The position numbers and the translations under genes were made by a program. A stretch of DNA of 64,000 nt. Source: Verrucomicrobiia bacterium (GTDB lineage: Bacteria > Verrucomicrobiota > Verrucomicrobiia > Palsa-1439). The stretch is taken from NCBI GenBank assembly GCA_035515475.1, contig DATJBF010000005.1:41420-105419 (forward strand). The letters are read 5' to 3'. Below the pieces are notes generated by a model. That model was given only the letters and a program-made list of their open reading frames with translations. It did no database searches and was not told where the DNA came from. Shown piece after piece: positions 33,323-54,901 of this stretch; the stretch's first letter is position 1, and each line of letters starts with the position of its first letter.

Positions 33323-33332
33323 GAGCGCATCC

Positions 33333-36777: not shown

Positions 36778-37078
36778 CCGCCTCTCGGGCTCCACAAGGA
36801 CCTAGCCATCAAACGCTTAATAAGCCTTTAGCTCTTTCGTCGGTCGAGGTAAAGCTAATTCTAGCGCGACTTCGCTCGGTCGATTGCGTGATTCCGCGCG
36901 GACTCCGCGATGGGTGTCGTCGCGCCGGCGCCATTTCATGCGGGTTTCAGGGAAGGCGAGCGCCCGTGGCACAACCACTGCTGGGCCGAGACGCGCATGT
37001 TATCGGCCAAAGTACTCTGGTCTGTCGTCGCCTTGATTGGGCTCGCGGTTCTGGCTCTTTCGGCCATCGTGATTGTCA

Positions 37079-38476
37079 TCAGCACGTCGCCGCGCTAGGC
37101 TCGCCCGCCGCGTCCAGCAAACCGTACTTCACCAGCCGCCGTCGCAACGCGTCGCGTTCGATGCCCAACAATTCCGCCGCGCGGGTTTGGTTGCCGCCGG
37201 CGCGCTCCATCGCCTGCAGGACGAGTTCGCGTTCGACTTCGGCCAGCGCCACGCCCCGGCCGGGCAGTTCGACCACCCATTTCCCGTTCTTCTTCACGCC
37301 GGCCCGGATTTCAGGAGGGAGATGCTTGGGCTGAATGACGTCGTCGGATTCCAGGATGACCAACCGTTCGACGGCGTTGCGCAACTCGCGGACGTTCCCC
37401 GGCCAATCGTAACACCGCAGCGCGTCCCCGGCCTCGGGGGACAATTGTTTCGGCGACTTCTTGAATTCTTCGGCAAAGTGCTTGAGAAAATGTTCGGCCA
37501 ATTGGGGAATGTCCTCGCGTCGTTCTCGCAACGGCGGGATGTCGACCGAGATCACCTTCAGTCGATAGAGCAAGTCTTGGCGGAACTCACCACGCGCCAC
37601 GGTTTCGGTGAGGTTCTTGTTGGTGCAGGCGATGACGCGGACATCCACCGCGATGTCCTGCGTACCGCCGACCCGGCGAAATTGCCGGGTCTCGAGTACG
37701 CGCAGCAACTTGGCCTGCATCGCCGGTTTGAGGTCGCCGATTTCATCGAGCAGCAACGTGCCGCCGTCGGCCAACTCGAATAACCCTTTCCGGGACGTCT
37801 TCGCGTCGGTGAACGCGCCGCGCTCGTGGCCGAACAATTCGCTTTCGAACAGGTTTTCCGGCACGGCCGAGCAATTGATGTCGAGGAACGGATGTTCGGC
37901 GCGTCGGCCGCCGAAATGGATCGCCCGCGCGGCCAGTTCCTTGCCCGTCCCGTTCTCGCCTTCGATCAGCACCGTGGTCGCGTCGCTTTCGGCAATCTTG
38001 GCGAGCAACTCGCGCGCAGCACGCATCGGGGGGCTTTGGCCGACGAGATTCTCCAGACCAAACTTCCGCGCCTGTTGGCGTTGCAGGCGGGCGACTTCAC
38101 GGCGCAGCTTTAATTCCCCGCGCGCCTTGTCCAGCGCCACGCGGACCTCATCGAAGTCGAACGGCTTGCACAGATAATTGTGGGCGCCGAGCCGGACGCA
38201 TTCCACCGCGCGGGCGATGCCCGTATCGGCGGTCAACATGATGACGGCGATTTCCTTTCCGAGATTCTTGATTTCCTGCAGCACCTGGACGCCGTCCATG
38301 CCGGGCAGGCGCAGATCGAGCAGCACCAGATCGTACCCATCGTTGCGGATCAGGTTGAGTCCTTCCTCGCCGCTGGGGGAGGTCTCCACCTCGTAGCCTT
38401 CGCGCATCAGCTTTTGCTGAAGCGACCAGCGCACCAGCTTCTCATCGTCAATGACCAATACTTTGGCTCTAGCCAT
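37079..38476 (-). CDS. sigma-54-dependent response regulator (NtrC family)
   Basis: Receiver (KVLVIDDEKLVRWSL...LVLLDLRLPGMDG), AAA+ sigma-54 interaction domain (GENGTGKELAARAIH, ESELFGHERGAFT GAFTGA motif) and C-terminal Fis-type HTH. Confidence 0.9.
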   Translation of the reverse strand: MARAKVLVIDDEKLVRWSLQQKLMREGYEVETSPSGEEGLNLIRNDGYDLVLLDLRLPGMDGVQVLQEIKNLGKEIAVIMLTADTGIARAVECVRLGAHNYLCKPFDFDEVRVALDKARGELKLRREVARLQRQQARKFGLENLVGQSPPMRAARELLAKIAESDATTVLIEGENGTGKELAARAIHFGGRRAEHPFLDINCSAVPENLFESELFGHERGAFTDAKTSRKGLFELADGGTLLLDEIGDLKPAMQAKLLRVLETRQFRRVGGTQDIAVDVRVIACTNKNLTETVARGEFRQDLLYRLKVISVDIPPLRERREDIPQLAEHFLKHFAEEFKKSPKQLSPEAGDALRCYDWPGNVRELRNAVERLVILESDDVIQPKHLPPEIRAGVKKNGKWVVELPGRGVALAEVERELVLQAMERAGGNQTRAAELLGIERDALRRRLVKYGLLDAAGEPSAATC

Positions 38477-39983
38477 GGCTGAATACCTCCTCCCGTACGT
38501 CCGCTTCGGACGGAGCCCAGGCGGCAAATTCCAGGGTGAACGTGCTTCCCCGGCCGACGTCGCTGGTCACTTCAATCACGCCCCGGTGTTTTTCCACGAT
38601 GGTCCGGGTAATGGCCAATCCCAGTCCTGTGCCGCGGTGTTTCGTCGTGAAGAACGGCGAGAAAATCTTCCGCAGGTTCTCCGGCGCGATGCCGTTGCCC
38701 GTGTCGCAGATGCTGACGCGGACGGACCGATCGTGACCGGGCCGCAACACTTTGTTCAACGTTTCCGCGCGCACCGTCAACGTACCGCCGTCGGGCATCG
38801 CTTGAACGGCGTTCAGGAGGACGTTCAGGACCGCCTGTTGAACTTGGGAACTATCGGCGCAGATCGGTGGCAGGTCGGCCGGACACTGCTCGACAATTCG
38901 CACGTGCTGCTTCTGAGCGTCGGGCCGAATCAGCCCGAGCATGGGCTTGATGATATCGCTCACGGCGCAGGCCGCGATCTCCGGGTCGCGCTGGCGCGAG
39001 AAATCCAGCAACTCCCGCAAGGTGGCGTTCAAGCGCGCGATCTGCCGCCGGATTTCGGCGACAATCTCGCCCTGCTGTCCGTTGCCGCCGTTTTCCGACA
39101 GCACTTCCACTGCCGCGCCGATGCCGGCCAACGGATTGCGGATCTCGTGGGCGATGCCCGCGGCCAGTTCGCCAATCGAGGCGAGCTTGCCCGCTTGTTG
39201 GATCTGCTTCTCGTGCGACTCGTGCAATTCGCGTTTGGCGGCATCGAGGCTCTGCAGCATCCGGTTGAAACCGGTGGCGAGCTCGCCGATTTCATCTTTG
39301 GTCTGCGCGGCGACCCGAACGTTGAGGTCGCCGGCCTGGACCTTGCGCATTTGTTCCAAGACCTGACTGACGGGTTGAGTGACCAGCCGGACGATGAGCA
39401 GCCACAACACAACGCCGACCAGCACGAAGATCACCACGCCGTAGGCGATGAGCAGATTGCGGTTGCTGGCCACGCTGGCTTCGGCGGGCGCGAGGGACCG
39501 TTCCAGGACAATCGCGCCGTTGTATCGCTGCCGGGGATCGTGACATTTCTGGCAGCTGTCGACGTTGGTGACCGGGCGCATGGCGACGGCGAGACGTTCG
39601 CCGTTTTCGGTCCGCTCCCCCTGCAGCACACGGCCTTCGCCGAACAATTCCGGCGGCACGGTCATTACGGCGTGCTCGATCTCCTGGGTTTCGGTCGAGA
39701 ACGCCACCGTGCCGTCGACGCGGATCACGCGGCCCCGGCGGATTTCGTCGCTGGCCTGCATCCGCATGAGGAATCCCTGCAACTCCAGATGGCGATCGCT
39801 GAGCATCACGCCGTTGAGGTACTCGTGCACCATCGAGGCCGCGATGAGATTCTGCGCCTGGGTGCGCTCGTGCCACCATTCGCTTTGGACGCGAATCACG
39901 AAATACGTGTAGATCCCGATTACCATGGCAACCGTTACGCCGACGGCCACGAGAACTTTCGCCGTGAGATTACGTCGCAGCAT
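38469..39983 (-). CDS. sensor histidine kinase with periplasmic heme-c-binding (CxxCH) sensor domain
   Basis: Two TM segments flank a periplasmic domain of about 150 aa containing CQKCH. HAMP, HisKA (IAHEIRNPLAGI) and HATPase_c (DTGNGI, GTGLGL) follow. Overlaps the downstream regulator start by 8 nt. Confidence 0.85.
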   Translation of the reverse strand: MLRRNLTAKVLVAVGVTVAMVIGIYTYFVIRVQSEWWHERTQAQNLIAASMVHEYLNGVMLSDRHLELQGFLMRMQASDEIRRGRVIRVDGTVAFSTETQEIEHAVMTVPPELFGEGRVLQGERTENGERLAVAMRPVTNVDSCQKCHDPRQRYNGAIVLERSLAPAEASVASNRNLLIAYGVVIFVLVGVVLWLLIVRLVTQPVSQVLEQMRKVQAGDLNVRVAAQTKDEIGELATGFNRMLQSLDAAKRELHESHEKQIQQAGKLASIGELAAGIAHEIRNPLAGIGAAVEVLSENGGNGQQGEIVAEIRRQIARLNATLRELLDFSRQRDPEIAACAVSDIIKPMLGLIRPDAQKQHVRIVEQCPADLPPICADSSQVQQAVLNVLLNAVQAMPDGGTLTVRAETLNKVLRPGHDRSVRVSICDTGNGIAPENLRKIFSPFFTTKHRGTGLGLAITRTIVEKHRGVIEVTSDVGRGSTFTLEFAAWAPSEADVREEVFSHG

Positions 39984-41247
39984 GCCGGGCCTCCCGGGCC
40001 ACCCCGACGGATGTTGGCGAAACCGGCGCACCGGCCGCCGGGTGCTCAAACAGCGGCAGGTAGCGGGCGGCCAGGCCAAAAATGACCAGGCCAAACGAGA
40101 GCAGATTCAACGTGATCACGATCTCGATCCACGAGGGAAAATAATGCGAGCCGGTGGCGGGCAACAGGCCGATCCAGGCCACGTTGAGCCGGTTGAGAAT
40201 TACTCCGACGATCACCGGGATCGCGGCGGCAAACGCCCAGCGCCGGCGGCCCGACCACCGGGTCTTCAGCAGCACGAACAACGGCAGCGTCAGCAGCACC
40301 ATCTCCACCGTGAACGTGAATCCTTGGAGCGGATAGGCGAACACGTCCACCCACGCGTTCCGCGCCGTGAGATCGGCAATGCGCAGGAACAAATACAACA
40401 TCAGGAACGGGGTCATGCTCTTCGCCAGCACCGTCAGCACCTTCGGATCCAGTGGCCGCCGGAACATCCAAAACGACAACGCCGAAACGAAAATCGCCAT
40501 CGCGAAACCGGAGACCAATGCGCTGATGAAGAAAAACACGGGAATGAACGGCGAATACCACAACGGCAGCAGCTTCTCGGGCACGATCAGAAACAACGAG
40601 CCGAGCGACGATTGATGCACGGTCGACAGCACCACGCCGCAGATCACAGCAGGAACGGTCACGGCGTGGACGAAATGCTCCAGGCGATGCCAGCCGAGCT
40701 TCTGGAGAACAATCGGCGCAAACTCCACGGTCAACACGCACGTGTACAGGATCACGCACCACGAGACCTCGAAGAGCACGGACCGATGCTGCCAGCTCAC
40801 AATGGGCATCCAGATTTTGTAGTAGCGTCCGAGATCGACGATCAAGGCTCCCGACGCCGACAGCGTGTAGCAGAGATAAGCGGCCAGGACGATGGGACGC
40901 AGGATCGGGTAGAAGGTCCGAATGCGAAACACGTACGCCATGCACGCGGTCAGAAACCCGCCGGCGGCAAAGGCGATTCCGCACAGAACCATCGCCTTCC
41001 ACAAGCCCCACGGAAAAGCGTTTGTGAGGTTCGTGACGGCTCCCAACCCGAGCGTGTAGCGCGTCGCAAACGCATATCCGCCGAGACCCCACAGCGCAAT
41101 CAGGAACGCCCACCCGACGACGGCGGCGGAGAACGATCGCGGACGTTGCCGGCCTTCGAGGAACCAGCACGCGACCACCGCCAGACCCGCCATGACCAGC
41201 GCGGCGAAAATGCGAAACAGAATGAGCAGGAAATCCATTTCAGCCAT
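39970..41247 (-). CDS. NrfD/PsrC-family integral membrane quinol-interacting subunit
   Basis: 425 aa, about 10 TM helices, NrfD-like size and hydropathy; follows an NrfC-like Fe-S protein with an 8-nt overlap. Confidence 0.7.
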   Translation of the reverse strand: MAEMDFLLILFRIFAALVMAGLAVVACWFLEGRQRPRSFSAAVVGWAFLIALWGLGGYAFATRYTLGLGAVTNLTNAFPWGLWKAMVLCGIAFAAGGFLTACMAYVFRIRTFYPILRPIVLAAYLCYTLSASGALIVDLGRYYKIWMPIVSWQHRSVLFEVSWCVILYTCVLTVEFAPIVLQKLGWHRLEHFVHAVTVPAVICGVVLSTVHQSSLGSLFLIVPEKLLPLWYSPFIPVFFFISALVSGFAMAIFVSALSFWMFRRPLDPKVLTVLAKSMTPFLMLYLFLRIADLTARNAWVDVFAYPLQGFTFTVEMVLLTLPLFVLLKTRWSGRRRWAFAAAIPVIVGVILNRLNVAWIGLLPATGSHYFPSWIEIVITLNLLSFGLVIFGLAARYLPLFEHPAAGAPVSPTSVGVAREARHAAT

Positions 41248-42145
41248 GCGTTTCCTTCCGGCTGCGCAGACGGGACACGGCGCTGAGGATCAATCCCAGC
41301 CCGATCACAATGTAGGGAACCTTTGCCAGCCAGTTCCAGGTCAAGGCGGGCAGGGGCGTCGTCGGCAGGCCCGTGGGCAGACCGAGTTGCTCCACGGGGA
41401 TATCCGACAGGTACAACCACGAGGTTCCTCCCACCACGCGGTCGCCAAATAACGTGACGTACCGTTTGGGTTGCGCGGCGACGCGGGCCCGGGCTTCCTG
41501 CAAGATGTCCCGGTGTTTTCCATACTTCAACGCGCCCGTCGGACAGGCGGCCACGCAGGCGGGCAAAAGCCCGGCGGCCGTTCGGTCGTCACAGAAATCG
41601 CACTTGTTCACGCGAGGAGTCAACGCGTTGTCCCACTCGTATTTCGGCACGTTGAACGGGCACGCCAGAAGACAGTAGCGGCAACCGATGCATCGGTCGT
41701 CCCGCCAGACAACGGAACCGCGAGCCGTCTTCTCCAGCGCGGCGACGGGACAGACCGAAACGCAGGCGGGCTCCAGACAATGCATGCATTGCCGTTTCAC
41801 GGGGACCTGACGCATCGATCCCTCGGACGTGGGAACGTCGCGGAAATCCACAAACGTCCGCGATTTGAACGTCAGCTTGCCGTCGCCGGGCCCGTACCCG
41901 AACGTTGCGGGCGCCAACCCCGGATAGCCCTGCCGCACCAAGCAAGCGTTCTCGCAAGCCCGGCATCCAATGCACCGCGTGAGATCGACCAGCACCGCGC
42001 CGTCCCGGCTCGCGTCGTGGGACCCGCTTTCGGCTGACGACGCGGTCGCACCGGCCGCCAGCAGCGACAGCCCGGCCATGCCCCGGCGACAAAACGTGCG
42101 CCGCGAGATGCGCTGGGCAAACAGATGATGGCGTGGCTCCGTCAT
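41240..42145 (-). CDS. Tat-exported 4x[4Fe-4S] ferredoxin subunit (NrfC/PsrB/HybA-like)
   Basis: Twin-arginine signal (RRTFCRRGMAGLSLLAAGATA) and four Cys clusters (CIGCRACENAC, CMHCLEPACVSVCP, CIGCRYCLLACP, CDFC...CVAACP). Confidence 0.85.
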   Translation of the reverse strand: MTEPRHHLFAQRISRRTFCRRGMAGLSLLAAGATASSAESGSHDASRDGAVLVDLTRCIGCRACENACLVRQGYPGLAPATFGYGPGDGKLTFKSRTFVDFRDVPTSEGSMRQVPVKRQCMHCLEPACVSVCPVAALEKTARGSVVWRDDRCIGCRYCLLACPFNVPKYEWDNALTPRVNKCDFCDDRTAAGLLPACVAACPTGALKYGKHRDILQEARARVAAQPKRYVTLFGDRVVGGTSWLYLSDIPVEQLGLPTGLPTTPLPALTWNWLAKVPYIVIGLGLILSAVSRLRSRKETHG

Positions 42146-43152
42146 GGTTCCTTCGCGTCGGGAGGTTGGTTGTGCGCGGACGGATCCCGCGCCGGACCCG
42201 AATCACGGTCCTGTTTGCGGGCCCGGAAATGGGGCACGGCATACCCGCAGAATACTCCCAAGAGAAACGCCAGGGCGATCAACGGGACAAACACACGTTG
42301 GTTTGCCTGCAAGTCGGCGCGCAGCTTGGCAGCCTGTTCCTCCAGGGAGCCAACCTTGTTCTCCAAGGCCTCGGGGTTGGCCGCTTTGAGCCGGGCCACT
42401 TCCTGTTCGAGCGTAGCCGTCTCATGGCTTTGGTGGACCATTTCCCGATGGCATCGGATGCAGGTCTCCGCGCCGACCGTGAAGGTGTGGCCGCGGACGC
42501 CCGTTCCGCGGATTTTCGGCGTGCCCGTCGCCAACTCAGGCATGTGGCAGGTAATACAGTGCAGTCCTTGGGAGTGATGCGTCGCGTGGGTGAAATCCTT
42601 GAGTTGTTCGGCGTGACAGGTGCCGCACATCTGGTCGGGATCGTCTTTGCGCAACGCCATGCTATGCATTTTATGACAATCAAAACAGCGGACGTTTTTC
42701 TGGCCGTGGGCGCTGACGCGCCATTCCCCATAGGTGATGCTGTGGCACGCCTGGCAGACGTCCGAGGTCACCGGCAACGCCATCTTCTCCTTGTCGGGAT
42801 GATCGTCCTTCGCCGGGCCGTGACAGGATTCACAACTCACGCCGTCGTGAGAGAATTGCCCGGTTTTCCGGTCGTACTGGCTGGTGTGGCAGACGAGGCA
42901 TTCCCACTTGTTTCCCTGCTGCTCGCGGATCGCCAGGAACTCGGGATTGACCGCCCGTGCGTGGGCCGAGGCCGCCCAATCCTTGGTGTCCTGTTCGTGG
43001 CAGAGCGCGCACCGGTCAGACGCTTTCTCCTCGTCCGCCCACGTCGTCATTACGCCCCAAATGACCAATGCCGAAATCCCAATGACCAGATACCGGCAAA
43101 ATCCGAATGGCAGAAACAGGGGCGCGCGACGTGTTTTTTTGGTGATCGTCAT
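42142..43152 (-). CDS. membrane-anchored octaheme c-type cytochrome
   Basis: 8 CxxCH (CALCH, CLVCH, CESCH, CQACH, CFDCH, CGTCH, CITCH, CIRCH) with N-terminal signal anchor and C-terminal TM (PLIALAFLLGVFCGYAV). Confidence 0.85.
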   Translation of the reverse strand: MTITKKTRRAPLFLPFGFCRYLVIGISALVIWGVMTTWADEEKASDRCALCHEQDTKDWAASAHARAVNPEFLAIREQQGNKWECLVCHTSQYDRKTGQFSHDGVSCESCHGPAKDDHPDKEKMALPVTSDVCQACHSITYGEWRVSAHGQKNVRCFDCHKMHSMALRKDDPDQMCGTCHAEQLKDFTHATHHSQGLHCITCHMPELATGTPKIRGTGVRGHTFTVGAETCIRCHREMVHQSHETATLEQEVARLKAANPEALENKVGSLEEQAAKLRADLQANQRVFVPLIALAFLLGVFCGYAVPHFRARKQDRDSGPARDPSAHNQPPDAKEP

Positions 43153-45248
43153 TTGGTTGTTCCTTGGTCCTTCGGTGCTTGGTCATTGGTCGTTTCCGCC
43201 AATCCCTGCGGTTCATCCCGCCGTTTCTTCCCGATGAGCCACGACGGATTCATCGGGTATTCCTTCGGGTCGAAAATGACCCAGTAGAAGTGCCACACCA
43301 GGATCGCCAGCGTTGCCAGTAGCGCCTCGTAGAAGTGGATCACCTGGGCCACGTCGTGCCACACTTTTGGCAGGAGCCGCAACACCGTGTTGGTGAAAAT
43401 CAACATCGCGCCGGTGATGATCATGACCACCGAACCCCAGACCAGCGCCCAGTACTCCGCTTTCTCGACATAGTTCCAGCGCCGGTGCGGCGGTGGCGTC
43501 TTGCGCAAGCCGAGGTTGTACGCCAGTTGGGCGACGGCGTCCCGCAGATCATGCGGCACCATCCACAACGCCCACAAGTAGCTGCGGCCCCGGCGGGTAC
43601 CGACCAGTGTGAACAAATGGGCCACGAACAATACCGCGAAGGTCCAACCGCAGACGCGGTGGATCATCCCGCGGACGTAGGCCCCCGTTTCTCCGAACGC
43701 TCGGAACGGCCAGCTCCACACCGCGTCGGGGAATTTGTGCGCGAACCCGGTATAGGCCAACAGGACGAACAGTACCAGCAGCAACCAATGTTGGGCGCGG
43801 GCCAGCCGGGTCAATCGCAGTTCCGCGTGCGCATCGGCGTTTACCGCACGGATATGGGCGCGAGTTTTCCGCAGATAGTCGAGCGAATTAAACGCCACCA
43901 TCCCGCCGATGGTCACAACGATCAGCACGATGTAGAGCCGCGAAATGAAATTCACGAGGAACGGTTTGCCCTCCGCCGCGCCGGGCGGGGCATGAATTTT
44001 GAAGAACTCCGCGCTTAACCGCGTGCCGATGCCCGGATGACACTTGCCACACGTTTGCGGCAGATTCTTCGGATTGATGGTGGAAAGCGGGTCGCTGGCG
44101 GGGAGGATGTCGTGCACGCCGTGGCAGGAAGCGCAATTGGCCGCGGTGAGATCGCCGCCCTGCAATGCCAAACCGTGAAAGCTTTGGATGTAGGTCGTGA
44201 ACACGTTCGGGGGCAAGCGGTACTGCGTGATGATCCGCTGCGCCGCGTGACACTGCCCGCAGGTCTCGGGAATATTGGCCGGGGAAACCCGGGACGTCGC
44301 CAGTTTGACGGCCTGGATGGTGTGCTCGCCGTGGCAATCGGTGCACACGGGCGCATCGCGCACGCCCCGCTTGACCGCCTGGCCGTGAACGCTGCGCAAA
44401 TAGGTCTCTTCGACGTTCTCATGGCATTTCCCGCAGGTGTTGGGCACGTTCTGCCAGTACAACTTCGACTGCGGGTTGGTCGATTTGTGCAGGTCGTGCG
44501 AGCCATGGCAATCCGTGCAGACCGCTGCGTTCAGTTCGTGTTTCTTCAACAGCGCGATGCCGTGGACGCTCTCTTCGTAGCTCACGATCGGGCTGCGCTG
44601 GCGCAAATGAAATTTCTCCATCTCCGCCGTGTTGCCGTGGCATCGGCCACAGGTGTTGGGGATGTTGGTTCGATACACGGGCGAGGCGGGGTCGCGGTAA
44701 TTCAGCAACTCGTGGGGATTGCCGTGGCAATCCCGGCACGACGCCGCTTCCGAAACGCCCTTGTGAACGGCCTGGCCGTGATCGCTGTTCAGATAGATCT
44801 GCGTCTCCACCCGATGGCACTGGCCGCAACTGACGGGCTTGAGATGTTCCGCGTGCGGCACGTCCGTGATATCGGTATGGCAACTCGTGCACAGGTTTTT
44901 CCCGTGAATCGAGCGCGAGAATTTCTCTTCATCGATGAACAGCGAGACCACCTTACCTGCGGCGTTCGTTTCGACGAGCGTCTGATCAGAATGGCAGAGG
45001 AAACAGTCGGAATTTTCAATGGCCCGAGCGCTGGCGGCAACCGATAGAGCAGCGATGAGGAAGGCGCATCCCTGCGCCCTGATCCTCTTCGCCGACCAGC
45101 GGGGGCGAGGAGATGCTTGGGGCGCGTTCTCTCTCCCCGGGACGCACGGGAGCGGGTTCGCCGCCAACGTTAACTCATGCCGTCGCATAACTGTGCAGTC
45201 CACTGAGCAGGTAGTTGACGCCGAAGTAGGTGAAGATGACCGAGGCAA
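43149..45248 (-). CDS. CbcL-like fusion: 11-heme c-type cytochrome plus C-terminal diheme cytochrome b (HydC/FdnI-type) membrane domain
   Basis: 11 CxxCH in the N-terminal 420 aa. The C-terminal 250 aa has 4-5 TM helices with conserved His pairs (HWLLLVLFVLLAYTGFAHKF, HRVCGWTFAVLFVAHLF, HDVAQVIHFYEALLATLAILVWHFYW). The true start is probably a non-ATG codon downstream of 45175, since the ORF-track 5' end overlaps the ccsA-like gene. Confidence 0.8.
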   Translation of the reverse strand: MPRSSSPTSASTTCSVDCTVMRRHELTLAANPLPCVPGRENAPQASPRPRWSAKRIRAQGCAFLIAALSVAASARAIENSDCFLCHSDQTLVETNAAGKVVSLFIDEEKFSRSIHGKNLCTSCHTDITDVPHAEHLKPVSCGQCHRVETQIYLNSDHGQAVHKGVSEAASCRDCHGNPHELLNYRDPASPVYRTNIPNTCGRCHGNTAEMEKFHLRQRSPIVSYEESVHGIALLKKHELNAAVCTDCHGSHDLHKSTNPQSKLYWQNVPNTCGKCHENVEETYLRSVHGQAVKRGVRDAPVCTDCHGEHTIQAVKLATSRVSPANIPETCGQCHAAQRIITQYRLPPNVFTTYIQSFHGLALQGGDLTAANCASCHGVHDILPASDPLSTINPKNLPQTCGKCHPGIGTRLSAEFFKIHAPPGAAEGKPFLVNFISRLYIVLIVVTIGGMVAFNSLDYLRKTRAHIRAVNADAHAELRLTRLARAQHWLLLVLFVLLAYTGFAHKFPDAVWSWPFRAFGETGAYVRGMIHRVCGWTFAVLFVAHLFTLVGTRRGRSYLWALWMVPHDLRDAVAQLAYNLGLRKTPPPHRRWNYVEKAEYWALVWGSVVMIITGAMLIFTNTVLRLLPKVWHDVAQVIHFYEALLATLAILVWHFYWVIFDPKEYPMNPSWLIGKKRRDEPQGLAETTNDQAPKDQGTTK

Positions 45249-46017
45249 ACCCGATGACCGAGATCCACGCCGCGCGCTGGCCTTTCCAGCCGCGCATGAA
45301 CCGGCAGTGCAAGAACACGGCGTAGATCAACCACGTGATCAGCGACCAGGTTTCCTTCGGGTCCCAACTCCAGTAGGTGCCCCACGCGGAATTCGCCCAC
45401 ACCGCGCCGCTGATGATGCCGACCGTCAGGAACAGGAACCCGAACGAAATCGTCTTGGCCGTGGCCGCGTCGAACGCATCCACGTAGTCAATGGTGGCAC
45501 GGGCTTCCGTGCCTGTGCGTCCACGGACCGGTACGCCCGTGCCACCTCGGATTCGGACCGCCACGAGATATCCGACGCTCGCCGCAAACGCGACCGCGAA
45601 CGCACCGTAGCCGAGGAAGCAGGTGAACACGTGCACCGTCAGCCAGTTCGACCGCAAGGCGGGCATCAACGGCTTGATCGTCGAATCCTGATACGTGCTC
45701 GCATACGCCAGCGTCAGCACCGCCAGCAACGCCGTCGCCGCTCCCAACGCGGGAATCTCGCGGCGGACCCGCAACGCCAGGTAGACGACCACGACCGCCC
45801 ACGCGAACAACACGAGCGATTCGAACATGTTGCTGAACGGCGCCCGGCCCGCGCTGATCCAACGCAGGACGAGATAAACCGTCTGCGCGATCAGCCCGGC
45901 CGACAGCAGCCCGGTCGCCGCGGTCGCAAAGCGGCGTTTACTGGAAAACAGGTTCGCCGCCGCAAGCAGCAGCGCCGTCAGATAGCCAGCCAGGCTGAGA
46001 TTGAATGCGAACGTCAT
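45175..46017 (-). CDS. CcsA/ResC-family cytochrome c assembly protein (HemX-like, downstream of hemA)
   Basis: WWD-type motif WGTYWSWDPKETWSL with conserved His residues in TM helices. Probable start MTFAFNLSLAGYL; the ORF-track start at 46146 is an extension overlapping hemA. Confidence 0.75.
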   Translation of the reverse strand: MTFAFNLSLAGYLTALLLAAANLFSSKRRFATAATGLLSAGLIAQTVYLVLRWISAGRAPFSNMFESLVLFAWAVVVVYLALRVRREIPALGAATALLAVLTLAYASTYQDSTIKPLMPALRSNWLTVHVFTCFLGYGAFAVAFAASVGYLVAVRIRGGTGVPVRGRTGTEARATIDYVDAFDAATAKTISFGFLFLTVGIISGAVWANSAWGTYWSWDPKETWSLITWLIYAVFLHCRFMRGWKGQRAAWISVIGFASVIFTYFGVNYLLSGLHSYATA

Positions 46018-47101
46018 GGTCGTCCTTTCCGTCGCCTGGAGGGCGAGCCTCCCGGCGAGCCGTCGTCCCCTGCGGTTCGGCAGGAGCCTCACCCTCCACG
46101 TGCAGTTTGGGGAGCAACGCGGCGGTGTGTTTGTCGATGATGGCACGGCACAGCGCCAACTCCTGTTCGCGATGGTGCACGTTGTGGCGCACGATCGCTT
46201 CCAAATCGTCGATGTTGTAAAGGTAAACGTTGTCGATCCGCTGCGCGTCGGGATCGATGTCGCGCGGCACGGCGATGTCGATCAGGAACAGCGGACGGTT
46301 GCGCCGCGTCTGCATCAGCTTCTCCACGTCGGCCCGATGCAGAATCGTCTGGGGACAACCCGTCGAGCTGACCACGATGTCCACGTCGGCCATTCGCTGG
46401 AGACAGTCGTCGAACCGGATCGCCTGACCGTTGAATTCCGTCGCCAGGGCTTGCGCGCGGTCGAACGAGCGGTTGGAGACGAGGATCGATGGGGCGCCCT
46501 TCTTGGCGAGGTGGCGCACGCAGGCTTCGCCCATCTTGCCGGCGCCGATGATCATCACCGTGTGCTTCGACAAATCGTGACGGAAAATCTTCTCGGCCAA
46601 CTCCACCGCCACGCTCCCGACCGACGTGGCGCCGCGGCCAATCGCCGTGCGGGTGCGGATTTCCTTCACCGCTTGAAACGCTTTCTGGAACACGCGGTTA
46701 AGCGTCGCGCCGGTCAACCGCGCGGCATGGGCCGATTCATACGCGTGCTTGACCTGGCCCGTGATTTCGGTCTCGCCAAGCACCATCGAGTCGAGCCCGC
46801 TGGCGACCGAGAACAGGTGGGCGATGGCGTCGGCGCCATCGCGCAGATAGAGATGCTCCCGCACGTCGCAAACGTACTTCGAGAGCAACTGAAACAGCGA
46901 TTTCACGTTGCCGTTGACGGCCGGCGCGACGCCGTAGATTTCGACGCGATTGCAGGTCGAGAGCAGCACGACTTCGTCGAGGCCGCCGACGACCCTGAGC
47001 CGGCAACCGTGGCAGCCGAGCTGCGATGGTGCGATGGCGAGTTGCTCGCGCAATTCGACCGGCGCGGTCTTGTAGCTCAGCCCGGCGACAAAGAGGGTCA
47101 T
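45938..47101 (-). CDS. hemA: glutamyl-tRNA reductase
   Basis: MTLFVAGLSYKTAPVELREQL, catalytic LSTCNRVEIYGV, NADPH-binding IIGAGKMGE; GGAGGA RBS. The C-terminus may be shorter than the ORF-track end. Confidence 0.9.
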   Translation of the reverse strand: MTLFVAGLSYKTAPVELREQLAIAPSQLGCHGCRLRVVGGLDEVVLLSTCNRVEIYGVAPAVNGNVKSLFQLLSKYVCDVREHLYLRDGADAIAHLFSVASGLDSMVLGETEITGQVKHAYESAHAARLTGATLNRVFQKAFQAVKEIRTRTAIGRGATSVGSVAVELAEKIFRHDLSKHTVMIIGAGKMGEACVRHLAKKGAPSILVSNRSFDRAQALATEFNGQAIRFDDCLQRMADVDIVVSSTGCPQTILHRADVEKLMQTRRNRPLFLIDIAVPRDIDPDAQRIDNVYLYNIDDLEAIVRHNVHHREQELALCRAIIDKHTAALLPKLHVEGEAPAEPQGTTARREARPPGDGKDDHDVRIQSQPGWLSDGAAACGGEPVFQ

Positions 47102-47115
47102 GGGCCCCGTCCTCC

Positions 47116-47250
47116 CAAATCCGAAATCCGAAATCCGAAGCCGAGCCGCAGGCGAGACCTGCGCAGCAAATCCGAAACAATTTCCAAACTCAAATTTGGG
47201 AAATTCGGATTTGGCTCGTATTTCGAGATTCGAATTTCGGATTTCATTTG
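47116..47250. repeat. AT-rich array of direct and inverted AAATCCGAA/TTCGGATTT motifs between resB stop and hemA start
   Basis: aaatccgaaatccgaaatccgaag (three or more direct copies), aaatccgaaacaatttcc...gggaaattcggattt (imperfect 18-20-bp inverted repeat), ttcgaatttcggattt. Local GC is far below the flanks. Confidence 0.7.
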
Positions 47251-48446
47251 TGCAGCCATGGATTCAGGTAGAACACGATGAACAAGCCGGCGATCATCAG
47301 GCTGAATCCCGCATAAACGACGGGCACGCCGGGATCTTTCACGACCTGCAACGACGTGTAGCTGAGGTCGTTGGGGTCGTAGCCCGATTGATAGAACGTG
47401 TAGCCTTTGTACGAGAACGGGCTATTGACCTCGACCTGGCGCTCACCCACGACCGTTCCTCCATCGATCACATCCACCGTGCTGCGAAATGACTTGATTG
47501 GCCCGCGGGGCATCGGCTCGCGCGGTGTTGCCCCGTCGTCCTGATAGACCATCTGCAGGGGACTCGAGGCGGTCGTCTGCCCGCCGGGACCGTGCATCGT
47601 GAAATCGGGGAACTTCGCGAACAACCAGCGGTGGTTGGAATACGATGGCCCGGCGACGGCTACAAGGATCGCGGGGTTGCGCGGTTCGTTGGACCGGCTC
47701 GTCACCTCTTTCGTGTTCGTATCGATCACGAAATCGGGGACGTATTTCAGGATCGTGATCTTGAATTCGCCGAGCGTCTGTTCGACGCCAAGCTTGATCG
47801 GCAGGCTCGCCTGAAGCTTCTTTTCAGGCCACGCCACCAGCAACGCGGGGCCGCAATCGGTGTGCGACAACGCGCCGTTCTCCGATCCGTCGCCGGACTT
47901 CTTCTGGTCATACGTTTCGATCTCGAACTTTGTCAGGTGAATCGCAAACGGGAGCGGCTTGACGCCGCGGTCGTCCACAAACTGCGCGGCGGTCTGGCCT
48001 TCGCGGAATTCGAGGTAACCCTTCTGTCCCCACACGCCGCGGATCACGCCGCCCGCCAGAATCATCAGGATGCTCAGGTGCGTGAGCATCGAGCCGAATG
48101 CCCGGCCGCGCGCATAGCCCGTTGTCCGTCGGACGGTGGCGAAGCGCCGCGTGCTGCATACGGCGACGGTCGACGACAGCACGCACAGCAACGCGATAAA
48201 CCACCACGAGGAGAACGTGTGTGTCAGCCCGGCCTTGCCGAGCCAGTCCATGCGTGCCGTTGCTTCGGGGTGCCTCGCAAGGTAACGCGCGACGTCCGCG
48301 CCTTGCGGCAACAGCGTACCGAGAACGCAGGCAGCGGCGATGATAACGACGACGCCAACCGCGAATTTCACGGAGGAGAGCTGGTCGAAGATGCGCGAGG
48401 TCAGCGATTTCCTGGATGTAACCTGTGTGGAATGACCTTGCCCCAT
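47244..48446 (-). CDS. ResB/Ccs1-family cytochrome c biogenesis protein (System II)
   Basis: N-terminal TM (FAVGVVVIIAAACVLGTLLPQ), large periplasmic domain, C-terminal TM; size and topology match ResB. Probable start MGQGHST at about 48446. Confidence 0.65.
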   Translation of the reverse strand: MGQGHSTQVTSRKSLTSRIFDQLSSVKFAVGVVVIIAAACVLGTLLPQGADVARYLARHPEATARMDWLGKAGLTHTFSSWWFIALLCVLSSTVAVCSTRRFATVRRTTGYARGRAFGSMLTHLSILMILAGGVIRGVWGQKGYLEFREGQTAAQFVDDRGVKPLPFAIHLTKFEIETYDQKKSGDGSENGALSHTDCGPALLVAWPEKKLQASLPIKLGVEQTLGEFKITILKYVPDFVIDTNTKEVTSRSNEPRNPAILVAVAGPSYSNHRWLFAKFPDFTMHGPGGQTTASSPLQMVYQDDGATPREPMPRGPIKSFRSTVDVIDGGTVVGERQVEVNSPFSYKGYTFYQSGYDPNDLSYTSLQVVKDPGVPVVYAGFSLMIAGLFIVFYLNPWLHK

Positions 48447-48727
48447 GGCCACCTTTCGTGTGACGGGCGGTGGCTTAGCAGTGGCCTTGCCAGTGGATGC
48501 CGCAGGTTGGGGCGACGGTCTGTAAGCGCTTGGCCTACAGTCGATTGCCGTGCGCGAAATCGCGCAGGCGACGAATCGGCTGCGCCGATCGTCGACCGAC
48601 AGATTGGCGGCGGGCTCCCGTTTCATGACAGCTTGTCATCAGTCGCCAAGCCAAGAGGCGATAGGGGGACGCGCTGCGTTGCAACCGAATCTTTGACTCG
48701 GCTCCGCTATTCGTCGCGGTGTCAACC

Positions 48728-49381
48728 CTACGGAGGTGTCGTGCGTGTGAGGTAGCTCCTTCGCGATTCCCTCACTTGGAAGCCGATCCGTTTCTTCGGC
48801 GGCGGTTCTGGCAGCGCAGGTAGGTCGATGATGTCCATGACGCGTTGGAGGATGGTGACGATGGCCGCTTCGTGCACATCGAGCCGGTCCTTGAGTTCCT
48901 TTTCCAGCGCGGCGAGTTTGCGGGCTTGTTCGCGGGTCGCGGTCAGCGTGGCGCGCATCTTCACGAAGGCGCGTACGACAAACACGCTCATGTCGACGGC
49001 ACGTGGACTGTTGAGGACGTTTGCTGCCATAATGGCGCCGTGCTCCGTGAAGGCAAAGGGGAGATAGCGGCGGCCGCCCCTGCGTTTTGAGGTCACAATC
49101 TGTGACCTCAAAGCTCCTTCGGAACCGGTCACAAATTGTGATCGGTTCGATGCGGTCACAAATTGTGACCGCATGGCTTCAAAGTCCTCAGCGTTCAATT
49201 GGAACATGAAATCCGATGGAAATTTCCTCGAGTTGCGTTTGACTGCCTGATTCAAAGCCTTTGTTGTCACGCCGTAAACCGCTGCCAAGTCGGCATCGAG
49301 CATGACCTTCTGACCGCGAATCTCGTAAATCAGCCGGTCAAGATATTCCACCCGAATTACTGAGGGCTTCTCCTGAGCCAT
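48728..49381 (-). CDS. ORF6N-domain protein (phage/mobile-element-associated DNA-binding family) with internal triplicated RSQ(F/I)VT repeat
   Basis: IRGQKVMLDADLAAVYGVTTKALNQAVKRNSRKFPSDFMFQL ... RRYLPFAFTEHGAIMAANVLNS is the ORF6N signature. The canonical LRSQIVTS segment is preceded by two extra RSQFVT copies. Confidence 0.7.
   Translation of the reverse strand: MAQEKPSVIRVEYLDRLIYEIRGQKVMLDADLAAVYGVTTKALNQAVKRNSRKFPSDFMFQLNAEDFEAMRSQFVTASNRSQFVTGSEGALRSQIVTSKRRGGRRYLPFAFTEHGAIMAANVLNSPRAVDMSVFVVRAFVKMRATLTATREQARKLAALEKELKDRLDVHEAAIVTILQRVMDIIDLPALPEPPPKKRIGFQVRESRRSYLTRTTPP
49091..49170. repeat. three in-frame copies of a 17-bp perfect/near-perfect palindrome GGTCACAA(A/T)TTGTGACC with extended compensated arms, inside the ORF6N coding sequence
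   Basis: Copies at 49091-49107 (ggtcacaatctgtgacc, arms extend to ttgaggtcaca/tgtgacctcaa), 49127-49143 (ggtcacaaattgtgatc) and 49154-49170 (ggtcacaaattgtgacc, arms tgcggtcacaa/ttgtgaccgca). Spacings of 36 and 27 bp keep the reading frame. Confidence 0.8.
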
Positions 49382-49582
49382 CGCCGGGTAGTATGCCAAT
49401 GCGAGTCAGTGGCGGCAAGTCTCTCGTGACAGGTGTCAGCAACCGGACGAGGAACGCTCACGGCGCGCTCAGCGAGCACGCCCTACCAACGACCGTCAGG
49501 CGGAAACACTCGCGCCACTGCAAAAAAACGCCGGCCCGGTTGGTGACCGCGCCCGGCGTCGGCAGACAGGTCTCGGGAAAAC

Positions 49583-50176
49583 CTAGTGTTTGACCTTGGG
49601 ATCGGGATGCGCGATCAGCGCGAACGCCTGCTCGTAATCGAACCCGACTTTCTTGCCGTCCTTCGTCGTGTAGCGGTCGGGCTTCCAGGTTGGGTTCTGG
49701 CTGTTGTGGCACATCTCGCAGCTCTTCGACGCCGGATAAACCAGACCGCCCTCGATGGCTTTCGCGCGGTCTTCCATCGTGCTCTTCGCCATGTATTTCT
49801 TTCCGGGACCGTGACAGGATTCGCAGGTCACGCCATCTTCGGGTTTGATTTTTTCCGTCGCGACGCTCTCGGTGAAATTGTAGGCAGTCGAATGGCACCG
49901 GAGGCATTTGCCGCTGGTCTGGGGATTGTCAACGCCGACTTTGGCGCCCGCCGCTTTGGCCTCGGGCGTCCCGAGCAACTCGAACGCCTTGGCGTGTGGA
50001 CTAGCCTGCCACTTGGCCAGGGCGTTGCCGCTGTCTTCCGACTTGTGACAGAGGCCGCAGGTTCTGGCGCCGACGTAACTGGCGGCGTCGCGGTCAGCCG
50101 CGCTGCTGCTGAGTGAGATTAGCATTCCGGCTGCGAGAGTCACGCAAAGGGTCGATATCGGTGTCCGGTTCTTCAT
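49583..50176 (-). CDS. periplasmic tetraheme c-type cytochrome
   Basis: 197 aa from MKNRTPISTLCVTLAAGMLISLSSSAA (signal) with CGLCH, CLRCH, CESCH, CEMCH. The 533-aa ORF-track entry is an artefactual 5' extension. Confidence 0.8.
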   Translation of the reverse strand: MKNRTPISTLCVTLAAGMLISLSSSAADRDAASYVGARTCGLCHKSEDSGNALAKWQASPHAKAFELLGTPEAKAAGAKVGVDNPQTSGKCLRCHSTAYNFTESVATEKIKPEDGVTCESCHGPGKKYMAKSTMEDRAKAIEGGLVYPASKSCEMCHNSQNPTWKPDRYTTKDGKKVGFDYEQAFALIAHPDPKVKH

Positions 50177-50289
50177 CGTCAAGGCTCCTTGAATGACTGG
50201 TTCGTGTTCTGACCGGCTACTCCTCTGCCGGGCGATCATACCGACATCCCAGATTTTTTCCACACAAAAATGTTCGTCGTCAAACGTCC

Positions 50290-51486
50290 TTACCGTTCGC
50301 TCGCTGTGCGCGATTTCGCACCGACCGTCCCCGGATTTGGCGCGGCCTCGTCGGTTGGCGGCAGACGATGCGGCACGCCGTAGATGTCGAAGTGGTACCG
50401 GACGCCGACGATGCGGACGTTGGTTTCCGAAAGATGGCCGACAACACCGAACGCCACGGCCAAGACGACCGCCACGATGCCCACCGTCACCGCGATGGGG
50501 CGTTTCTTCGGATGCCGTTCCCGGCTGCGGTCCAGGAACGGCCAGAACAACAGCAGCAGCGGTGGGATCATCGAGACGAACAAACCGAGCGTCTTCGGGA
50601 AATACTTCAGCAACTGATACGTCGACAGGAAATACCATTCGGGTTTGATGCCTTCGGGCGTCACAAACGGATCGGCTTTCTCTCCCAACTCGACCGGCCA
50701 CAGCATGATCAGCGTCACGAGCACGCCGATGAGCACGCAGAACACCACGCCTTCCTTCAGCACGTGCTCCGGGAAAAAAGGGACCGCGTGCTTTTTGTCG
50801 ATGGGTTTCTCTTCGCCGACGCGTTCCATCGTGGCCAGCCCTTGTACGCGCATCAGGAACAGGTGTGTGGCGATGAGCATCGTCAGCACCCACGGCAGCA
50901 CCACCACGTGCAACACGTAGAACCGGGCCAGCGTCTCGCCGGTCACGCCTTCGCCGCCGCGCAACAGCAGTTGAATGTAGTTGCCGACCAGCGGGATTGC
51001 CCCCGTGATCTCGGTGCCAACAGTCGTCGCCCAGTAGCTGAGTTGGTTCCACGGCAGCAGATAACCCGTGAACCCGAAGGTGACGGTGCAACCAAGGATG
51101 AACACGCCCAGTACCCAGGTCAGTTCCCGCGGCTTCTTGTAGGCGCCCATGAAAAACGTCCGCATCATGTGGATCAGCACGCACAGGATCATCAGCGTCG
51201 CGCCCCAGGCGTGCAGCCCGCGAATCAGCCAGCCGAAATGCGCCTTGGTCATGATGAACCGCACGCTCTCGAACGCCGTGTTGGTCGTCGGCCGATAATA
51301 GATCATCAGCAGGATGCCCGTGACGACCTGGTTGACGAACAGGAACAGCGACAAACTGCCGAACGTGTGCCAGAAACCCGTGGCCTGCGGCAGCGGCTTG
51401 TGCAGTTGGTCGTCGGCGAACTTCTCGGCCACGCCGATGTCGAAGCGCTGCGCCAGCCAGTCGTGGATTCGCGGAGGCAATTTCAC
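50290..51486 (-). CDS. cytochrome b of a Rieske/cytb (bc1/b6f-type) complex, with fused subunit-IV-like C-terminus
   Basis: FGSLSLFLFVNQVVTGILLMIYYRPT, conserved heme-ligand His pairs (HFGWLIRGLHAWGATLMI...VLHVVVLPW), PEWY-like region (PEWYFL), 398 aa. Confidence 0.9.
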   Translation of the reverse strand: MKLPPRIHDWLAQRFDIGVAEKFADDQLHKPLPQATGFWHTFGSLSLFLFVNQVVTGILLMIYYRPTTNTAFESVRFIMTKAHFGWLIRGLHAWGATLMILCVLIHMMRTFFMGAYKKPRELTWVLGVFILGCTVTFGFTGYLLPWNQLSYWATTVGTEITGAIPLVGNYIQLLLRGGEGVTGETLARFYVLHVVVLPWVLTMLIATHLFLMRVQGLATMERVGEEKPIDKKHAVPFFPEHVLKEGVVFCVLIGVLVTLIMLWPVELGEKADPFVTPEGIKPEWYFLSTYQLLKYFPKTLGLFVSMIPPLLLLFWPFLDRSRERHPKKRPIAVTVGIVAVVLAVAFGVVGHLSETNVRIVGVRYHFDIYGVPHRLPPTDEAAPNPGTVGAKSRTASER

Positions 51487-51920
51487 GCCGGTTTCACCAT
51501 GACTTCGCCGTTGATCACCACCACGCCCTGCTCGGGCAACGGCCGCGGCGGCGGACCCGCCACGGGGCGTCCATCAAGGTCGAAGAATCCCCCATGACAC
51601 GGGCAGGCGATCTCCCGTCGCTGCGGATCCCAGCCGACGACGCAGCCGAGGTGCGTGCAAATGGCCGAGAACGCGCGAAACCCTTGCGGAGTATGGACGA
51701 CGATGACGGGGTGGCCGCTTACCGCCACGATTTTCGCCTGCCACTCGGGAAAATCGGCGGCCTGGCCGGCCGACACCGTCTGGGTACTGGGACCCCGGCG
51801 CTGGGCCGGCCACACGTAGCTGAGCACCGGCGCGACGAACCCGACGGCCCACGCGACCAGACCGCCGGTCAACACCCAGTCCAGAAACGACCGGCGTGAG
51901 ATTCTCTTTTCGTCACTCAT
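51483..51920 (-). CDS. Rieske [2Fe-2S] iron-sulfur subunit
   Basis: Tat-like RRSFLDW, TM anchor, and boxes CTHLGC ... CPCHGG; 4-nt overlap with cyt b. Confidence 0.9.
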   Translation of the reverse strand: MSDEKRISRRSFLDWVLTGGLVAWAVGFVAPVLSYVWPAQRRGPSTQTVSAGQAADFPEWQAKIVAVSGHPVIVVHTPQGFRAFSAICTHLGCVVGWDPQRREIACPCHGGFFDLDGRPVAGPPPRPLPEQGVVVINGEVMVKPA

Positions 51921-54689: not shown

Positions 54690-54901
54690 GTTGCGCCGGC
54701 GATTATTAGCGTTGTCGCGCGGGTTGCGTCAAGCGTTCCATCGACTGATGAAGGTAGGGACGCGCTCCGGCGCGTCCACGGGTCATTGGGACGCGGTGCC
54801 CCGCGTCCGTGGCCGCGCCGCAGCGCAGCCCTACCAAGGCTGTTCCTTGATGCCTCCCCAATCTCGACTCGACAAACTGTCCGTGATAAAAGGCGCCCAA
54901 G

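Follow-up and report, generated by a model that had tools for sequence, protein, structure and literature searches.

How does a bacterium that relies on large sets of multihaem cytochromes secure the haem to fill them? The question is raised by a stretch of 64,000 nucleotides from a Verrucomicrobiia bacterium (GenBank assembly GCA_035515475.1, contig DATJBF010000005.1, positions 41,420 to 105,419 of the forward strand; G+C content ≈ 62%), which in its full length is called the window here, and in which hemA, the gene of glutamyl-tRNA reductase (GluTR), lies between resB and ccsA, the two genes of a System II cytochrome c synthetase, and upstream of a series of multihaem cytochrome genes. GluTR catalyses the first committed, flux-controlling step of tetrapyrrole synthesis. 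The haem required for dozens of multihaem cytochromes greatly exceeds what housekeeping regulation permits, and free haem is toxic; to our knowledge, how cells adjust haem supply to demand is little understood except in Shewanella.

A first-pass annotation of the window had read hemA, a CcsA-like gene, a CbcL-like multihaem gene and resB as a physical coupling of haem synthesis and attachment to a haem-hungry operon, and had likened the pair of hemA and its neighbour to hemA-hemX of Bacillus. All four genes exist, encoded by the minus strand, and lie close to or exactly at the positions given there; the interpretation is partly supported: its core was right, the Bacillus analogy wrong. Haem synthesis, haem attachment and haem-hungry cytochromes are coupled physically, and probably also transcriptionally. 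To this has to be added a point absent from the annotation, namely that the window hemA belongs to a separate clade linked to cytochrome clusters. What emerges is the core of a predicted operon that is conserved among Verrucomicrobiota, resB-hemA-ccsA-cbcL-(8-haem cytochrome)-hmcB-hmcC-sensor kinase-sigma54 activator, and it appears likely, from gene identities and gene order, that as a regulated operon it co-expresses a dedicated GluTR isoenzyme, a cytochrome c synthetase and their cytochromes.

A glutamyl-tRNA reductase from a separate clade

The window HemA (387 residues, 47101–45938, minus strand; GlutR_N and Shikimate_DH domains) scores 360.3 bits against the equivalog model TIGR01035 (cut-off 209.55), and matches PF05201 (157 bits), the N-terminal catalytic domain, and PF01488 (148 bits), the NADPH-binding Rossmann domain with its GAGKMG loop. 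It could be aligned to residues 8–318 of the 404 residues of 1GPJ, with the catalytic cysteine of the motif STCNRVE at the active-site position of that structure. By domain, motif and equivalog criteria the gene encodes a glutamyl-tRNA reductase, for which the reduction of Glu-tRNA(Glu) to glutamate-1-semialdehyde is predicted.

A genome scan with one genome per species gave 80 loci with HemA, which fall into two clades. The median identity is 64–66% within clade A or clade B and 47% between them, and only four positions are fixed differently. The window hemA falls in clade A, whose conserved motifs comprise STCNRVE (invariant in an alignment of 16 clade-A sequences and at least 90% conserved within each clade), GETEIxGQ and the NADPH loop GAGxMG. 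The two clades have very different surroundings. In the 3 kb that follow hemA on its own strand, at least four CxxCH motifs were found in 54 of 58 evaluable clade-A loci and in 0 of 17 clade-B loci. The downstream neighbour of clade-A hemA takes three forms: ccsA followed by cbcL, which is the form of the window; an extracellular-type cytochrome with nine haems at the head of the porin-cytochrome module of He et al. 2017 (PMC5615132), the form seen in most clade-A loci; and a 4-haem gene at the head of another cytochrome/beta-propeller module. The clade-B context consists of a HemX-like gene, hemA, hemC and a fused cobA-hemD, in this order. Three metagenome-assembled genomes (MAGs) hold one locus of each clade. 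The GC content agrees in all three pairs, and for the two pairs with long enough contigs a tetranucleotide test returned the clade-B contig as the best match of its clade-A partner among the clade-B loci. Most likely, the window hemA is not the housekeeping gene, but belongs to a specialised clade linked to cytochrome clusters.

It might be argued that hemA, resB and ccsA are ordinary single-copy housekeeping genes that came to lie near cytochrome genes by accident, since a second copy cannot be seen from the window alone and cytochrome-rich genomes offer many chances for such adjacency. With the mutually exclusive contexts of the two clades (54/58 versus 0/17), the presence of both clades in three MAGs, and overlapping junctions conserved in 43 loci, this explanation is extremely improbable.

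Another reading would make the clade-A HemA a neofunctionalised or regulatory protein instead of a working GluTR, for instance one that senses redox state or binds a partner within the cytochrome system. Such a role could be suspected from the missing dimerisation domain, from a recurring PGW motif in the C-terminal tail, and from a clade-specific CxxC at residues 30–33. The dimerisation domain PF00745 finds no match in the window HemA, and the match to TIGR01035 ends at position 329 of the 416 profile positions. In all Verrucomicrobiota HemA seen (L005–L084), clade B included, the protein has ≈ 350–367 residues and lacks the GluTR dimerisation domain; an equivalog model of 338 residues, NF001909, exists as well. 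Because the housekeeping clade B is equally short, the short form is a lineage trait and not a disqualifier, and a "truncated HemA" was rejected as a special feature of clade A. With clade-A HemA above the equivalog cut-off, the catalytic cysteine and the substrate- and NADPH-binding motifs conserved throughout the clade, and no more than four fixed differences from clade B, loss of the enzymatic role is very unlikely, and a catalytically competent GluTR remains the preferred assignment.

The CxxC in question (LGCHGCRL; window positions 47003–47014, minus strand) is conserved in core clade A; clade B, the deepest branches of clade A and the solved structures of GluTR lack it. It might act in redox chemistry or bind a metal.

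A true CcsA with its ResB partner

The gene that follows hemA (ccsA or resC, 280 residues, 46017–45175, minus strand; PF01578, 179 bits) encodes the haem-handling subunit of System II. The analogy drawn with Bacillus concerned HemX, a protein that restrains GluTR abundance and whose gene adjoins gtrR in 94% of HemX-encoding genomes (Choby et al., PMC5801465). A PF01578-family protein is indeed encoded beside hemA, yet this is not enough to tell HemX from CcsA. The haem-handling site of System II is defined by a tryptophan-rich WWD motif with flanking periplasmic histidines, and a transmembrane histidine (PMC12285233). In the window protein, the WWD motif is intact (W207–W224, WANSAWGTYWSWDPKETW), preceded by H129 and followed by H237 and H275, the role of each histidine being assigned by position only, and the score on TIGR03144 is 288.5 bits (cut-off 187.6; orthologues 265–269 bits). 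The HemX-like genes of the phylum reach 81–123 bits on the same model, have a degenerate WWD motif and lack H237, so that the combination of WWD motif and H237 marks true CcsA only; the criterion was derived for the present purpose from these HemX-like genes of the phylum. The HemX-like genes sit immediately upstream of clade-B hemA, and the context of hemC and cobA-hemD occurs at clade-B loci only.

The ResB partner (resB or ccsB, 400 residues, 48446–47244, minus strand; PF05140, 160 bits) is encoded upstream of ccsA with only hemA in between, an order kept in 13 genome loci; its start follows the gene call of the public contig and is in line with the relatives in the alignment. Because the equivalog score, the WWD motif and the histidines fit the haem-handling site, and because ResB is adjacent, the gene is not taken as hemX, an assignment that was rejected also in view of the cytochrome genes, instead of hemC and hemD, downstream. 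On its sequence features the protein is an authentic CcsA of System II, which with ResB would form the cytochrome c synthetase.

The third partner, the CbcL-like quinol/quinone oxidoreductase (45188–43149, minus strand), carries 11 CxxCH motifs after a signal-peptide-like N-terminus. Its C-terminal part resembles a dihaem cytochrome b membrane domain of the HydC/FdnI type (PF01292, cytochrome b561, 57.6 bits for residues 479–659; TIGR01583, FDH gamma-like, 35.7 bits). In a survey of the CbcL/MtrH/MtoC family the N-terminal domain was reported to hold 3–23 CxxCH motifs (PMC6295460), and the protein can be placed in this family by its architecture only.

Overlapping reading frames

In the window, hemA and ccsA overlap by 80 nucleotides out of frame (+1), so that the first 26 codons of ccsA lie within the 3' end of hemA. 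The ccsA start is ATG 46017, with the Shine-Dalgarno-like sequence GGAAAGGA upstream; GTG 46146 was rejected in its favour, and likewise the public call (contigs L001 and L002; 217 residues, start 45828), with which two conserved transmembrane helices are lost. It is because of the overlap that public calls are too short, and in public assemblies ccsA needs to be extended by 63 residues.

The overlap is kept in all 43 complete loci, with 65 nucleotides in 40 of them and 80 nucleotides in the three that represent the lineage of the window. Its variability falls on the third codon position of ccsA (entropies of 0.22, 0.12 and 0.79 for positions 1, 2 and 3; 14 loci), from which it follows that selection acts on the ccsA frame and that CcsA truly possesses its first two helices. 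Conservation of the HemA tail was accordingly dismissed as a sign of a functional tail in this clade, the constrained frame being that of ccsA. In the lineage of the window, the alignment reveals a change from GCT to GCG, synonymous in ccsA, that abolished the ancestral TAA of hemA; therefore HemA is five codons longer there, with a stop codon that is kept but displaced by 15 nucleotides. A HemA-CcsA fusion through frameshifting or sequencing error was considered as well and rejected, since the +1 offset, the ATG and the Shine-Dalgarno-like AAGGAG are conserved in 43 loci.

Along these lines, the C-termini of HemA (45938–46017, minus strand, in the window; L016–L061) may be mentioned. Most clade-A proteins end in a tail of the form ...PGW...GA..., also where no ccsA overlaps and the next gene begins 30–250 nucleotides downstream, so that the PGW motif seems older than the overlap.

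The junction between ccsA and cbcL is similarly tight. The ccsA stop (45175) had been noted to fall inside the cbcL reading frame, which holds: of the only two plausible cbcL starts, one, ATG 45188, precedes the end of the ccsA stop by 14 nucleotides, and the other, a TTG, comes 4 nucleotides past it. The ATG at position −14 is present in 32 of 43 loci, agrees with the public gene call and, in relatives, begins a normal signal peptide (MRGPDNWWAACVCLL...ARA/IE), giving a conserved overlap of 14 nucleotides. A terminator or promoter-like site between the two genes, which would separate them, was looked for by scan and none was found; over 41000–52000 the counts of sigma-70-like sites and intrinsic terminators were at chance level, with nothing at the ccsA/cbcL junction. 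A terminator-like match at 45974–45955 was dismissed, as it lies inside coding sequence. Upstream, the resB/hemA junction of 11 of 12 relatives is a start-stop overlap of 4 nucleotides, ATGA or GTGA. Further down the predicted operon, from the 8-haem cytochrome gene to the response regulator gene (37079–43152, minus strand), all junctions overlap.

Conservation of the unit and the role of its synthetase

The resB-hemA-ccsA unit was recovered from 13 genome loci and, in addition, from 40 metagenome contigs, wherever the sequence reaches far enough; the contigs were found with a degenerate pattern of 24 nucleotides from the hemA/ccsA overlap. With such recurrence the arrangement is far from chance. 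In 25 of 28 evaluable loci the 2.5 kb behind ccsA hold at least nine CxxCH motifs, and the gene order 3' of cbcL, from the 8-haem cytochrome to the response regulator, matches that of the relatives. The window derives from soil/peat metagenome assemblies, with identical contigs in samples of ENA and JGI, and the closest relatives are, without exception, Verrucomicrobiota MAGs. The proposed coupling, physical and probably transcriptional, is supported by the ccsA/cbcL overlap, the junctions conserved in relatives, and a candidate sigma-54-type promoter before resB described below.

It can be asked whether the ResB/CcsA pair is a haem lyase dedicated to a particular substrate, as are NrfI and CcsA1 of Wolinella, serving particular or non-canonical sites of the neighbouring cytochromes and adding no general capacity, while hemA merely rides along. 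System II isoenzymes encoded beside their substrates are well established (NrfI for CXXCK, CcsA1 for CX15CH; PMC12285233). Some clade-A loci have, close by, a second and different pair that consists of a ResB-like and a 635-residue CcsA-like protein; furthermore, the porin module in the window includes a periplasmic cytochrome with seven CxxCH and one variant motif, He et al. giving eight sites (PMC5615132). On the other hand, the two proteins encoded right after ccsA, the CbcL-like and the 8-haem one, carry canonical CxxCH only, and a dedicated lyase leaves the linkage of hemA to multihaem genes unexplained in ≈ 40 loci without adjacent ccsA. One related locus, L012, has lost resB and ccsA and retains hemA-cbcL and the remaining operon, which argues that the pair is dispensable for these substrates. 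Since the cytochromes at L012 must be matured by another system, the cluster-borne synthetase was an accessory copy there. As an explanation of the locus a dedicated lyase is unlikely, although it is compatible with, and not exclusive of, the co-expression of GluTR, synthetase and cytochromes favoured here.

A remnant of ccsA is left at the same locus: at 11022–11200 of L012, the start codon and ≈ 25 first codons of ccsA (MTLVFKLS...) now form the N-terminus of the CbcL-like protein.

The spacer between resB and hemA

The first-pass annotation had placed ResB just upstream of hemA. This is correct as to order but not as to immediate adjacency, because a hairpin spacer of 142 nucleotides intervenes (47243–47102, minus strand) that represents an insertion particular to this lineage and is absent from 11 of 12 relatives. 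Built of CGGATTT heptamers as a nested, AT-rich inverted repeat, the spacer has a predicted RNA fold (−65 kcal/mol, z = −4.25) that forms a stem across its entire length. The stem is not followed by a U tract, and the Shine-Dalgarno sequence of hemA (GGGAGG) comes immediately 3' of it.

It is conceivable that in this window the hairpin serves as a terminator or processing site which splits resB from hemA-ccsA-cbcL, the latter then being in need of a promoter of its own; the very stable fold of the whole spacer and its insertion in place of the 4-nucleotide overlap of the relatives would fit. Such a split is nonetheless distinctly unlikely, considering the missing U tract, the position of GGGAGG right behind the stem, the outcome of the scan, in which no sigma-70-like or sigma-54-like site was found inside or past the spacer, and an ancestral arrangement that was clearly one continuous operon. 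A continuous operon from resB onwards is thus preferred for the window as well.

No further copies of the spacer repeat were found within the window. Short similar heptamer repeats were seen in L071 (8934–9024), and the spacer of L015 contains a different repeat of 7–8-mers. An Rfam search of 44900–49700 produced two sub-threshold chance matches only; neither in the leader nor in the spacer did it find a riboswitch or another known RNA.

Candidate promoters and regulators

The operon preceding resB ends with a terminator-like hairpin in the window and in its relatives. Three elements stand out in the otherwise variable intergenic region (minus strand). A perfect palindrome, TGACAAGCTGTCA (48638–48626), conserved in nine aligned loci, is a candidate upstream activator site; a further palindrome, TGCGCGATTTCGCGCA (48566–48551), conserved in relatives, is a candidate site for an enhancer-binding protein; and a sigma-54-type −24/−12 element, TGGCAAGGCCACTGCT (GG-N10-GC; 48492–48477), lies 31 nucleotides before the resB ATG. 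The palindromes lie 60–150 nucleotides upstream and, by their conservation, are putative activator sites. The sigma-54-type element is identical in L008, L009, L010, L013, L014 and L059 and present as a variant in L005; a position-conserved element, CTGGCAAGGCCACTGCT (GG-N10-GC), is common to eight loci, 31–46 nucleotides 5' of the resB ATG, with a background rate of 0.008 per 350 nucleotides for this type of motif. In L006, L007 and L011, resB comes directly after a 4-haem gene, without such a promoter.

A second sigma-54-type element, TGGCACGTGCCCTGCC (36775–36760, minus strand), with a related palindrome (36885–36900), is conserved before the gene of the 9-haem PKD-domain cytochrome at the head of the porin-cytochrome operon. 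These elements point to ATG ≈ 36732, rather than 36801, as the real start of this cytochrome. From these shared elements, the porin-cytochrome operon would belong to the same regulon as resB-hemA-ccsA.

The operon encodes its own candidate regulators: a sensor kinase (39983–38469, minus strand) and a sigma-54-dependent response regulator of the NtrC type (Sigma54_activat; 38476–37079, minus strand). The sensor region of the kinase carries a single CxxCH that is present throughout the relatives, together with a weak match to the Mcp40H-20 haem-c sensor domain. It would itself depend on System II for maturation.

The cytochrome cluster and its edges

The motif count gave 55 canonical CxxCH on the minus strand at 33494–54194, i.e. 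over 20.7 kb, and none on the plus strand, which corrects the earlier figure of at least 57 within 25 kb. On the upstream side of resB (all minus strand), the cluster begins with a NapC/NirT-type 6-haem protein (54689–53103), a 9-haem protein (53250–51913), a Rieske protein (51920–51483), a cytochrome b (51486–50290) and a 4-haem cytochrome (50179–49583), after which the terminator-like hairpin is located at 49549–49532. Downstream of cbcL, on the same strand, follow an 8-haem cytochrome (43152–42142), an HmcB-like Fe-S protein (42145–41240), an HmcC/NrfD-like membrane subunit (41247–39970) and the two regulators, and then the porin-cytochrome module (36732–31304), made up of the extracellular 9-haem protein, the periplasmic cytochrome and a porin-like protein of ≈ 700 residues.

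Two genes at the margins deserve mention. An ORF6N-domain gene (223 residues, PF10543; 49399–48728, minus strand) lies past the terminator of the bc-type operon and ahead of the promoter region of resB; since the related loci have no gene at that place, it looks recently inserted. At the far edge, a fused sirohaem decarboxylase gene of the NirD/L type (AhbA/B-like; 54890–55939, plus strand; two PF22451 and two PF17805 domains) is divergent from the cytochrome cluster and is kept at that edge in several relatives. It ties a second gene of the haem pathway to the cluster and hints at a sirohaem-dependent route to haem.

A working model and its weak points

The proposed sequence of events would start at the haem-c-containing sensor kinase, which would activate the sigma-54 enhancer-binding protein. 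A single transcript would then supply an extra GluTR, raising the flux of 5-aminolevulinate (ALA) and haem, more capacity for haem export and ligation, System II being the machinery by which haem is exported and joined to CxxCH, and the apo-cytochromes that use up the haem. The out-of-frame overlaps (4 nucleotides for resB/hemA in the relatives, 65–80 for hemA/ccsA and 14 for ccsA/cbcL) would couple the translation of these products. Because its genomic context is separate, a GluTR isoenzyme apart from the hemX-linked one may plausibly escape the HemX-type restraint of GluTR abundance.

Several observations weigh against this model. The whole case is built from sequence and synteny. The short form of HemA is not special to clade A, and the activity of the protein is a prediction; the co-occurrence of clades A and B is seen in three MAGs only, and the window alone does not tell of a clade-B hemA or a second System II in its own genome. 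The very stable hairpin of 142 nucleotides between resB and hemA could attenuate read-through. As to regulation, the sigma-54 motif has two mismatches to the textbook consensus TGGCAC-N5-TTGCW, and matches to the consensus across the window (23, with 31.8 expected) are not above chance, for which reason the argument for sigma-54 rests on positional conservation. Moreover, no sigma-54 motif was found upstream of hemA in 49 clade-A loci without resB, and from this it follows that regulation differs across clade A; none was found upstream of hemA in 18 clade-B loci either.

A more far-reaching idea can be put forward tentatively, with the chances of its being right somewhat short of even. The clade-A hemA may represent an unrecognised, "demand-coupled" class of GluTR that heads clusters for extracellular electron transfer (EET), is subject neither to HemX nor to haem feedback, is possibly redox-gated through its CxxC and, in one sub-clade, is translationally joined to System II. 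If true, the start of ccsA would be overprinted on the tail of hemA, synthesis, export and ligation of haem would be metered together with the apo-cytochromes, and the arrangement would span Verrucomicrobiota from soil, peat and freshwater. An operon-embedded copy of GluTR, translationally coupled to haem attachment and placed under a redox-sensing sigma-54 circuit, would be a simple answer to the supply problem. The clade-A hemA, or the overlap within resB-hemA-ccsA, could serve as a genomic marker of electron-transfer clusters in uncultured Verrucomicrobiota of peat and humic waters, and the unit may offer a design route for the heterologous overproduction of multihaem cytochromes.

Comparison with known systems

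Duplicated and differently regulated isoenzymes of the haem pathway are familiar from the ALA synthases hemA/hemT of Rhodobacter and from HEMA1/HEMA2 of plants, which differ from the present case in not being embedded in cytochrome operons. The ferrochelatases hemH1/hemH2 of Shewanella (PMC6664582) are another example of a step of the haem pathway that is duplicated, with copies regulated differently for a special demand; in Shewanella it is the last step that is duplicated, in the window the first, and the Shewanella paralogues do not lie within cytochrome operons.

Maturation genes inside the operon of the cytochromes they serve are known from nrfHAIJ (NrfI) and CcsA1 of W. succinogenes, and from nrfEFG of E. 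coli (PMC12285233). In contrast to these, the adjacent substrates in the window have no non-canonical motif, the synthetase is split, with a haem-synthesis gene between its halves (resB ... ccsA), and the pair is dispensable, as L012 suggests. The passenger genes of mtrCAB, i.e. ccmA-I, glnS and frdABCD (PMC8805035), provide a parallel in EET clusters, which thereby carry genes for maturation and, as has been argued, for haem-precursor supply; their link to haem synthesis (glnS, frd) is indirect and their maturation system is System I, whereas in the window GluTR itself is duplicated and, as proposed, coupled translationally to System II.

The verrucomicrobial porin-multihaem clusters of He et al. 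2017 (PMC5615132) contain the same module as the window (31304–36732), and the CbcL/MtrH/MtoC family (PMC6295460) includes the architecture of the window's cbcL; hemA and ccsA have zero occurrences in both papers, and resB is likewise unmentioned in their clusters. In the open-access literature, no hemA paralogue tied to multihaem or EET clusters and no split resB-hemA-ccsA unit was found described. What is known already comprises maturation genes in cytochrome operons (NrfI, NrfEFG), ccm, glnS and frd with mtrCAB, and the duplicated ferrochelatase.

Finally, the hemAXCDBL operon of Bacillus and Staphylococcus (PMC5801465) shares with the window a gene for a PF01578-family membrane protein directly next to hemA. 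Its counterpart in the relatives is their other hemA locus, where the HemX-like gene precedes hemA, hemC and cobA-hemD. The window locus differs from it in the intact CcsA with ResB adjacent, and in the cytochromes, instead of hemC and hemD, downstream. In functional terms, HemX restrains GluTR, whereas the CcsA of the window is predicted to consume what GluTR produces.

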